Part shown: positions 22,701 through 25,700 of the stretch, piece by piece
Position numbering within the stretch: the first letter of the stretch is position 1
How the letters are laid out: each line of letters opens with the position of its first letter
Assembly (NCBI RefSeq): GCF_016903815.1
Contig: NZ_CP069973.1
Length of the DNA stretch: 64,000 bases
Strand: one strand, 5' to 3'
Origin: Escherichia coli
GTDB lineage: Bacteria > Pseudomonadota > Gammaproteobacteria > Enterobacterales > Enterobacteriaceae
Program-made: the position numbers

Positions 22701-25700
22701 GTGCGCGCGCTTCCAGCATATGACCGAGATTGATCAGACCGATAATCATCGCGCTGGCTTCGTAATAAAGATGTCGCGCTTCCATCGGGAACCACTGCGG
22801 CCACAGGTTGACGCTCATCGAATAGAGCCACGCCACGCCAGTACCCAGCGCCACCAGCGTATCCATCGTCGCTGCACCGTTCAGCAGGCTTTTCCATGCG
22901 CTGCGGTAAAAATGCCCGCCGGCGAAAACCATTACCGCCAGGGTTATCAGGCCGATAACCAACCACAGGCTGCGGTTGTCGGCGGTGACCATCATGTTAT
23001 CGCCGATCATCCCCCAGACCATCACCGGGATACCCACCGCCAGTGCGACAATCGCCTGCCAGCGGAAGCGCTTCATCGTAGCGACGGCGGTTTCTTGCTG
23101 GCGCTCGCGGCGTTTAGCGTCATCTTCAATCGCTTCCGCGCCGTAGCCCGCTTTTTCCACCGCCTGCACTAAATCTTGTGGGGAGGCACTGCCCATCACC
23201 AGCGCAGTACGCTCCGCCAGGTTTACCCGTGCCTGAGTGACGCCCGGTACGCTTTGCAGCGCATTTTGTACGCGGGTGACACAGCTGGCGCAGCTCATGC
23301 CGCTCAGCAGCAACTGCTGGCTGTCATCGTCATCGGCGGTCGCTGCCGGAAGCGCCTCAGAAACCGCTGTCAGTGCTTCCGACGGGATTGATGACTCCGC
23401 CAGCGGTTTAGCCTTTGGGTGGCTTACAGATGCGTCATAACCCGCTTGTTTGATGGTTTCGATCAGCTGTTCTGCACTGGCAGTCCCGGTAACGTGCGCT
23501 TCAGTGACAGACACATCCGCCTGCTCAACATCCGGGCGCTGTTCGAGACTTTCTTTCACGCGTTTAACGCAGTGACCGCAGGACAGGCCGTCCAGGGTCA
23601 GGTCGATAGTTTGTGACATAAAACACTCCTTTTAAGACAGTTTTGACTGGCTGTGATAAAGGTTAAACCTTCCAGCAAGGGGAAGGTCAAGAAATTAATA
23701 AACCAGGCGGGTAAAAGTCCGTAAAGATTAAAAAATCGGCTCGATTTGCATCAGGATTAGACATTTATCTCTTTGTTTTCCTGTAGTTAAGTTGCGGGTG
23801 CTAAGTTAAATCAGGATGCCTGAAAATCGGCACCGGGGTGAGGAATTACCTCCCGCATCTATAAAAAGGAGTTAACAAAAGATGTTAGATGCAAACAAAT
23901 TACAGCAGGCAGTGGATCAGGCTTACACCCAATTTCACTCACTTAACGGCGGACAAAATGCCGACTACATTCCCTTTCTGGCGAATGTACCTGGTCAACT
24001 GGCAGCAGTGGCTATTGTGACCTGCGATGGCAACATCTATCGCGCGGGTGATAGTGATTACCGCTTTGCGCTGGAATCCATCTCGAAAGTCTGTACGTTA
24101 GCCCTTGCGTTAGAAGATGTCGGCCCGCAGGCGGTACAGGACAAAGTTGGCGCTGACCCGACCGGATTGCCCTTTAACTCAGTTATCGCCTTAGAGTTGC
24201 ATGGCGGCAAACCGCTGTCGCCACTGGTAAATGCTGGCGCTATTGCCACCACCAGCCTGATTAACGCTGAAAATGCCGAACAACGCTGGCAGCGAATTTT
24301 ACATATCCAACAACAACTGGCTGGTGAGCAGGTAGCGCTCTCTGACGAAGTAAACCAGTCGGAACAAACAACCAACTTCCATAACCGGGCCATTGCCTGG
24401 CTGCTGTACTCCGCCGGATATCTCTATTGTGATGCAATGGAAGCCTGTGACGTGTACACCCGTCAGTGCTCCACGCTCATCAATACTGTTGAACTGGCAA
24501 CGCTTGGCGCGACGCTGGCGGCGGGTGGTGTGAATCCGCTGACGCATAAACGCGTTCTTCAGGCCGACAACGTGCCGTACATTCTGGCTGAAATGATGAT
24601 GGAAGGGCTGTATGGTCGCTCCGGTGACTGGGCGTATCGCGTTGGTTTACCGGGCAAAAGCGGTGTAGGTGGCGGTATTCTGGCGGTCGTCCCTGGCGTG
24701 ATGGGAATTGCCGCGTTCTCACCACCGCTGGACGAAGAAGGCAACAGTGTTCGCGGTCAAAAAATGGTGGCATCGGTCGCTAAGCAACTCGGCTATAACG
24801 TGTTTAAGGGCTGATCATGATGAACACGGAAGGTAATAACGGTAACAAACCCCTCGGTTTATGGAACGTCGTTTCCATCGGCATTGGGGCAATGGTGGGG
24901 GCGGGGATCTTCGCGCTGCTGGGGCAGGCTGCGTTGCTAATGGAAGCCTCGACCTGGGTCGCCTTTGCTTTTGGCGGTATTGTGGCGATGTTTTCCGGTT
25001 ATGCCTATGCGCGCCTGGGGGCGAGCTATCCCAGCAATGGCGGTATTATCGACTTCTTTCGTCGCGGATTAGGCAACGGCGTCTTTTCGCTGGCACTCTC
25101 GTTATTGTACCTGTTGACGCTGGCGGTGAGCATCGCCATGGTCGCCCGTGCTTTTGGCGCTTATGCCGTGCAGTTTTTGCATGAAGGCAGTCAGGAGGAG
25201 CACCTTATATTGCTCTACGCGTTGGGGATCATTGCGGTGATGACGCTTTTCAACTCCTTAAGCAACCATGCGGTAGGGCGGCTGGAAGTGATCCTCGTCG
25301 GCATTAAAATGATGATCCTGTTATTGCTGATCATTGCAGGTGTCTGGTCGCTGCAACCGGCGCATATTTCTGTCTCTGCGCCCCCCAGCTCCGGTGCGTT
25401 CTTCTCCTGTATCGGGATAACCTTCCTTGCCTATGCGGGCTTTGGCATGATGGCGAACGCGGCGGATAAAGTGAAAGATCCGCAGGTCATTATGCCACGG
25501 GCGTTTCTGGTGGCGATTGGCGTTACCACGTTGCTTTATATCTCGCTGGCGCTGGTTTTGCTTAGCGATGTATCGGCATTAGAGTTAGAAAAATATGCCG
25601 ATACCGCCGTAGCGCAGGCAGCTTCTCCGCTGCTCGGGCATGTGGGTTATGTGATCGTCGTCATCGGCGCTTTACTGGCGACGGCTTCAGCCATCAACGC

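Follow-up and report, generated by a model that had tools for sequence, protein, structure and literature searches.

The copA/CopA(Z) frameshift signal in a 64,000-nucleotide stretch of the Escherichia coli chromosome and its conservation in related species

The window, as the whole stretch of 64,000 nucleotides (nt) analysed here is called, belongs to contig NZ_CP069973.1 (RefSeq assembly GCF_016903815.1) and is E. coli chromosome. Its minus strand carries copA, the gene for a Cu(I)-exporting ATPase, and inside copA lies the subject of this report, a slippery heptamer with a stop codon in the -1 frame and a predicted RNA structure downstream. The gene order ybaP-copA-glsA-ybaT is that of K-12, and with a query of 601 nt around the site, matches at an identity of at least 95% were obtained in 5422 of the 5426 complete E. 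coli genomes, always under a feature named copA. The protein has Pfam matches to E1-E2_ATPase, Hydrolase and two HMA domains and differs from the K-12 CopA by 9 amino acids (82 nt differences in the whole gene). The features of the gene that matter for the site are the following.

21115..23619, minus strand: copA coding sequence, 834 amino acids in the 0 frame, Cu(I)-exporting P1B-type ATPase with two N-terminal HMA domains (from the open reading frame list and Pfam)
23569..23589, minus strand: metal-binding motif G11-L-S-C14-G-H-C17 (GxxCxxC) of the first HMA domain, from the translation
23413..23419, minus strand: slippery heptamer C_CCA_AAG, nt 201-207 of the copA coding sequence (last base of His67, then Pro68 and Lys69)
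23408..23413, minus strand: -1 frame codons GGC (Gly70) and TAA (TAA at 23408..23410); the first G of GGC is the last base of the heptamer
23408..23619, minus strand: CopA(Z) coding span, consisting of codons 1-69 in frame 0, the -1 slip, Gly70 and TAA (212 nt of DNA, 213 nt read)

The minus strand reads ...GTA AGC CAC CCA AAG GCT AAA CCG CTG... at the site. The 0-frame codons under the heptamer are His67 (CAC), Pro68 (CCA) and Lys69 (AAG), and the heptamer has the X_XXY_YYZ register that is expected of a frameshift cassette. The original prediction, made from the sequence alone, had placed CCCAAAG over these three codons, within 23405-23425 and after the first metal-binding domain. It proves right in each respect: the heptamer is at 23413..23419, the span holds both the heptamer and the -1 stop, and the motif G11-L-S-C14-G-H-C17 and a Pfam HMA domain at residues 8-62 lie upstream. 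The capitalised letters of the prediction, CCAAAG, are correct as far as they go, and only cosmetically incomplete in that the heptamer also includes the last C of the His codon.

A slip at the heptamer gives a product of 69 zero-frame residues and Gly70, 70 amino acids in total. This product is a complete HMA domain (PF00403, residues 8-62, 52.1 bits against a cut-off of 24.8, E=8e-14), and its sequence matches to solved structures include CopZ chains and Atx1-like chaperones. Judged by an HMA match above the Pfam threshold, a CxxC motif and a length of about 70 residues, it would belong with the chaperones of the CopZ/Atx1 type. The binding of Cu(I) by the chaperone and the transfer to the ATPase have their basis in the literature (PMC6771820, PMC7558416).

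Two interleaved helices follow the heptamer, and their order, 5'S1-5'S2-3'S1-3'S2, predicts a pseudoknot of the H type. The stems were derived independently of the published copA pseudoknot and consist of four strands.

23398..23406, minus strand: 5' strand of stem 1, with CCGCUG (23401..23406), a bulged G and CG (23398..23399)
23375..23383, minus strand: 5' strand of stem 2, GUCGGAAGC, inside the loop closed by stem 1
23364..23372, minus strand: 3' strand of stem 1, with UG (23371..23372), a bulged A and CAGCGG (23364..23369)
23345..23353, minus strand: 3' strand of stem 2, GCUUCCGGC

With the flanking pair included, stem 1 of the window pairs ACCGCUG (23401..23407) with CAGCGGU (23363..23369), and in E. 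coli it can extend outward through AAA (to 23409), giving 9 base pairs (bp) between AAACCGCUG and CAGCGGUUU. The duplex energies are -9.2/-10.9 kcal/mol for stem 1 and -14.4 kcal/mol for stem 2. The spacer between the heptamer and stem 1 is 6 nt when counted to the conserved CCGCUG core and 5 nt when counted to the preceding A, and a spacer of 6 nt is within the spacing generally described for stimulators of -1 frameshifting. The predicted structure would therefore suit a -1 frameshift cassette, for which a spacer of roughly 5-9 nt is expected. Comparable pseudoknots, with perfect stems of at least 6 and at least 7 bp that start 3-9 nt after the heptamer, occurred in 21 of 5000 dinucleotide shuffles. 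A third helix, between GUCAUC in loop L1 and GAUGAC downstream, was considered and dropped since it is absent from an unbiased scan for helices that are paired in at least 90% of the sequences.

The conservation of the element was studied in the best 80 species loci from one scan of species-representative genomes, all from Enterobacteriaceae/Erwiniaceae and with 71-99% protein identity; together with the window this gives 81 sequences. The genera include Escherichia, Citrobacter, Klebsiella, Raoultella, Enterobacter, Kosakonia, Cedecea, Buttiauxella, Pantoea and Erwinia, and retrieval relied on peptide patterns that lie outside the frameshift element. The heptamer is CCCAAAG in 78 of the 81 sequences and CCCAAAA in the other three, which are all among the 80 other species. 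Its first C is retained also in the sequences that have Phe (TTC) or Ser (TCC) as residue 67. A TAA or TGA is found exactly one codon after the slip in 81/81, even though the 0-frame residues 70-71 at this position vary (AK/AD/AE/AN/TE/SK/SD/PD/TD), and codon 70 ends in T throughout.

The stems are equally constrained. All six core pairs of stem 1 are invariant in the 81 sequences and the seven core pairs of stem 2 are essentially so. The two outer pairs of stem 2 have one-sided changes only and are still paired (GC to GU; UG to CG or UA). Of the 1241 cells in the 17-pair pseudoknot, 99.8% are paired, including all those of stem 1, compared with 18-49% when the partners are slid. RNAalifold independently picks stem 1 from the alignment, together with its inner extension (C-G and R-U after a one-base bulge). 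In the unbiased scan, which covers codons 58-125, stem 2 is the longest helix and stem 1 is joint second. There is no synonymous variation in the codons Leu83 CTG, Thr84 ACA and Ala85 GCG under the 3' strand of stem 1, and under that of stem 2 Leu90 is CTT in 81/81, Pro91 is CCG in 81/81 and Ala92 is GCA in 72/72. The only third position in the core that varies freely is that of Ala82, which is the single junction nucleotide between the 5' strand of stem 2 and the 3' strand of stem 1.

Synonymous variation was compared along a codon alignment of the first 400 codons, using columns in which at least 80% of the sequences share a residue and that residue is degenerate. Fifteen of the 17 eligible codons in the element (66-73, 79-85, 89-92) have no synonymous variation, compared with 2 of 275 elsewhere (Mann-Whitney p = 3e-11), and the lowest 27-codon sliding window starts at codon 66. 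The heptamer, the -1 stop and both stems are thus under strong purifying selection beyond the coding constraint. Of the 5422 E. coli genomes, 5343 have an identical 81-nt element, whereas the surrounding 601 nt are at least 99% identical in only 3821; in the one variant element that was inspected, a loop base is changed.

The same signal has been published for E. coli. The curated K-12 record NC_000913.3 holds a second copA coding sequence for a 'soluble Cu(+) chaperone' (YP_009518752.1, 511168..511379), which is joined from two pieces and consists of the first 212 nt of copA, corresponding to 23408..23619 in the window. Over this span the window differs from K-12 by 3 nt, none of them near the site, and the 135 nt from codon 66 onward are identical. 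When the slip is applied to the K-12 copA, the product matches YP_009518752.1 exactly, as it does the UniProt entry 'Isoform Soluble copper chaperone CopA(Z) of Copper-exporting P-type ATPase'. The 70-residue product of the window has Val38 where the CopA(Z) of K-12 has Ile38, and this exact variant had no match in a collection of 15 billion proteins.

The -1 site of copA and CopA(Z) in E. coli K-12 was reportedly described by Meydan et al. in 2017 (Mol Cell 65:207), and reportedly also by Drees et al. in the same year; these two papers and Loughran 2022 are the literature basis for the frameshifting itself. Compared with that K-12 site, the window has the same gene, heptamer, -1 stop and coding span, and the difference is strain polymorphism only. 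Efficient -1 frameshifting in E. coli copA, giving a product of 70 instead of 834 amino acids, is reported in PMC5009743, in which C_CCA_AAG is also described as highly shift-prone in E. coli. Support from ribosome profiling and from an independent study is given in PMC9548414. According to PMC7558416, the shift is stimulated by the nascent chain as well as by the slippery sequence and a pseudoknot, and in PMC10861913 copA is cited with dnaX and prfB as one of only three well-characterised chromosomal frameshift sites of E. coli. The original prediction had linked the heptamer to the reported CopA(Z) product of about 70 residues, and this is borne out by the coding span in NC_000913.3 and by the exact match of the slipped K-12 product. 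The two features it had named for checking are also present: the -1 stop, TAA, comes one codon after the slip, and the H-type pseudoknot downstream can form and is essentially invariant in the 80 other species. The site in the window is confirmed as the already published E. coli copA/CopA(Z) frameshift signal, real and not new.

We consider it highly probable that the site functions as the -1 programmed ribosomal frameshifting cassette of E. coli copA. The anatomy, the identity of the product and the selection are results of the present analysis, and efficient frameshifting, its stimulation and the chaperone function are taken from the literature. In the mechanism that this suggests, a ribosome on C_CCA_AAG would have the CCA of Pro68 in the P site and the AAG of Lys69 in the A site, while the pseudoknot, with its first stem 6 nt downstream, would be located at the mRNA entry channel and resist unwinding. 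In a fraction of the ribosomes both tRNAs would slip in tandem and re-pair from CCA_AAG to CCC_AAA in frame -1. The slipped ribosomes would add Gly70 (GGC) and terminate at UAA, yielding CopA(Z), a soluble HMA copper chaperone of 70 amino acids, and those that do not slip would continue to the 834-residue CopA pump.

Some observations weigh against this interpretation, or at least against its structural part. Nested minimum free energy folding of 90 nt is no better than that of shuffles (z = -0.78). Since ViennaRNA does not score pseudoknots, this result is uninformative, and thermodynamics is not decisive. There is also almost no compensatory covariation: one double change was seen, together with three pairs that have one-sided changes preserving the pair, and the shuffle control was not exceeded, which is uninformative too. 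The near-absence of covariation is explained by the stems being almost invariant. The pseudoknot fold is accordingly to be seen as supported by conservation, as opposed to covariation, and not as proven. Finally, a nested alternative in which the 5' strand of stem 1 pairs with a CAGCG located 3' of stem 2 is partly conserved. It was rejected as the conserved fold, with 80% of its cells paired and its outer pair present in only 16 of 73 sequences.

The short N-terminal protein might instead owe its origin for the most part to a separate, truncated transcript of copA or to CopA proteolysis, with little contribution from the heptamer. As cited in PMC7558416, the paper of Drees et al. 2017 has 'differential transcript formation' in its title beside frameshifting, and to judge from that title a contribution at the transcript level has been proposed. 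However, neither a truncated transcript nor proteolysis explains what is found in 81/81 sequences, namely the -1 stop one codon after the heptamer, the T at the end of codon 70 and a heptamer that keeps its initial C when residue 67 changes. The curated CopA(Z) moreover ends in Gly70, which is encoded only by the -1 frame, and no terminator-like site was found near the element on the copA strand. This origin of the protein therefore appears improbable. It is still less probable that the heptamer is in frame by chance and that the conserved RNA, instead of recoding, serves mRNA stability, a binding site or a translational pause for membrane targeting. Such a reading would agree with stems that are conserved without covariation, with a conserved string in loop L1, GAGUCAUCA, that lacks an explanation, and with the frequency of the bare heptamer, which is not enriched in the window (3 observed compared with 8.3 expected from shuffles). 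Against it, there is joint conservation of heptamer, spacer and -1 stop, also at synonymous positions, the 6-nt spacer fits the general spacing of -1 stimulators, and frameshifting at copA has been reported from experiments (PMC9548414, PMC5009743, PMC7558416). Reporter assays of the cassette are likewise reported in the literature.

A count of slippery heptamers in the window bears on the same question. In a crude gene set of 33 non-overlapping ATG-initiated open reading frames of at least 150 amino acids (18,825 codons), there are 23 in-frame heptamers of the X_XXY_YYZ type but only three of the X_XXA_AAG type, in dnaX, in an IS1397 transposase and in copA, and all three are documented -1 frameshift sites. 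Given the rarity of X_XXA_AAG, the 21 in 5000 shuffles with a comparable pseudoknot and the conservation in 81/81 sequences, it is the combination that exceeds chance and not the bare heptamer. RNA polymerase slippage at the A-run, as opposed to ribosomal slippage, is a formal alternative for any recoding site that contains a homopolymer. It has no support in the present data and hardly any likelihood for copA, with its run of just 3 A (CCCAAAG), since runs of about 7 or more are typically required for transcriptional slippage. The conserved pseudoknot, the 6-nt spacer and the X_XXY_YYZ register are instead hallmarks of slippage by the ribosome.

Conservation is not restricted to the heptamer and the stems. 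Loop L1 (23384..23400, minus strand) keeps GAGUCAUCA, in which Ser76 is TCA in 75/78 and Ser77 is TCA in 63/65; no conserved pairing partner for this string was found. Immediately upstream of the heptamer (23420..23425, minus strand), Ser66 is AGC in 75/75 and His67 is CAC in 78/78, although the CAC codon ends in the base with which the heptamer begins. A GGAG located 8 nt upstream of the heptamer, as in dnaX, is present in 34 of the 80 other species, among them Citrobacter, Klebsiella and Enterobacter, compared with a background of GGAG in only 9% of the 24-nt windows of these genes. It is absent in E. coli and E. albertii, and the window has no copy at 23428..23431. In the lineages that have it, GGAG might be a Shine-Dalgarno-type stimulator like that of dnaX or a mere reflection of Ala-Glu codons. 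Since the L1 string, the AGC of Ser66 and the upstream GGAG are not accounted for by the stems, the copA signal could have parts beyond the heptamer and the two-stem pseudoknot, such as a triplex of loop and helix or an interaction with 16S rRNA, but such additional or lineage-specific stimulators seem rather unlikely.

Further downstream, a helix of 6 bp, CAGUUG/CAGCUG, was seen at about 23280..23315 (minus strand), in copA codons ~102-113 of the second-HMA region. It is paired in at least 90% of the species and has 2-3 pair types at two positions. Since CAGCTG is a palindrome with more than one potential partner, this helix may be incidental.

The other two sites of the X_XXA_AAG type in the window belong to known systems.

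4633..4697, plus strand: dnaX gamma/tau -1 element (Rfam RF00382, 96.8 bits), heptamer A_AAA_AAG at 4652..4658, -1 stop one codon later
12715..14063, minus strand: transposase copy of IS1397 (IS3 family) between ybaL and gsk, heptamer A_AAA_AAG at 13584..13590, annotated 'programmed frameshift' (orfA/orfB) in strain 7/2

The window thus has three -1 frameshift sites, two of which are in chromosomal housekeeping genes (dnaX and copA). In both of these an X_XXA_AAG heptamer is read by tRNA-Lys, the -1 stop comes one codon after the slip and the truncated product shares its N-terminus with the full-length protein. The dnaX signal uses an upstream Shine-Dalgarno-like element and a downstream hairpin, whereas copA in E. 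coli lacks the upstream GGAG and has a two-stem pseudoknot. At the gathering score, RF00382 gives no match to the copA element; in the window it matches dnaX alone, at 4633..4697. The orfA-orfB genes of the IS3 family resemble copA in the -1 slip on X_XXA_AAG, which is annotated as a programmed frameshift in RefSeq. They differ from it in that the slip gives a longer fusion protein and in being part of a mobile element, not a housekeeping gene.

Stand-alone chaperones of the CopZ/Atx1 type, such as those of E. hirae (1cpz) and CopZ (6ff2), share with CopA(Z) the length of about 70 amino acids, the HMA domain, the CxxC motif and a sequence match, but are encoded by a separate gene of their own. 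Seven distant P1B ATPases with two HMA domains, encoded on plasmids or chromids and 28-40% identical, were examined from Burkholderia, Rhizobium, Acinetobacter, Deinococcus, Phaeobacter, Pseudomonas and a Klebsiella plasmid. An in-frame X_XXY_YYZ heptamer between the HMA domains is absent from all seven, so the frameshift cassette is not universal in the family, and in three of them a separate gene for an HMA protein adjoins the ATPase. This agrees with the statement that most bacteria encode copZ separately (PMC10187127). The orthologous human copper ATPase, ATP7B, has also been tested for frameshifting with a cassette that starts with CCCAAAG, as in copA, according to the primer sequence in PMC9548414. 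In the same paper the claimed -1 frameshifting in ATP7B is found to be a reporter artefact, with no drop in ribosome profiling and no synonymous-site conservation; the bacterial copA differs by its very strong synonymous-site conservation.

One gene giving both a copper pump and a chaperone, at a ratio set by recoding, is biology that was established in 2017 and to which the present check adds little. What is added is a quantitative picture of the constraint on the cassette, with essentially no synonymous change in the heptamer, the -1 stop and both stems over 81 sequences. Two practical gaps in annotation also became apparent. No family in Rfam 15 matches the copA element at the gathering threshold, and at E<=10 there are only chance-level matches. 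The curated K-12 record carries a coding sequence for CopA(Z), but none was found at the site in the non-K-12 RefSeq records of E. coli that were inspected, where the rows listed show only 'copper-exporting P-type ATPase CopA'. The one strain whose record was examined in full, 7/2, has annotations for the dnaX element and for the IS3 frameshift and none for CopA(Z). Both gaps would be closed by a covariance or pattern model derived from the alignment.

Some other features were seen around copA and elsewhere in the window. The promoter region of copA (23660..23690, minus strand) has TTGACC, a 19-nt spacer and TAACCT, and within it there is a perfect dyad, ACCTTCC-N7-GGAAGGT, at 23667..23687. 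By these elements it looks like an operator-promoter of the MerR/CueR type. A standard scan for sigma-70 promoters gave nothing upstream of copA because the spacer of 19 nt is long, as is expected for a promoter of the MerR type. Just beyond ybaT there is a frameshifted pseudogene of the TolC family (~26450..27800), which adjoins an open reading frame of 6925 amino acids (~27910..48700, plus strand) annotated in strain 7/2 as the BapA-related adhesin SiiEA. This region is a strain-specific island, since cueR directly follows ybaT in K-12. Matches at the Rfam gathering score were found for sroB (the small RNA ChiX) at 19810..19893 on the plus strand, between ybaK and ybaP, and for naRNA4 at 54912..54989 on the minus strand.

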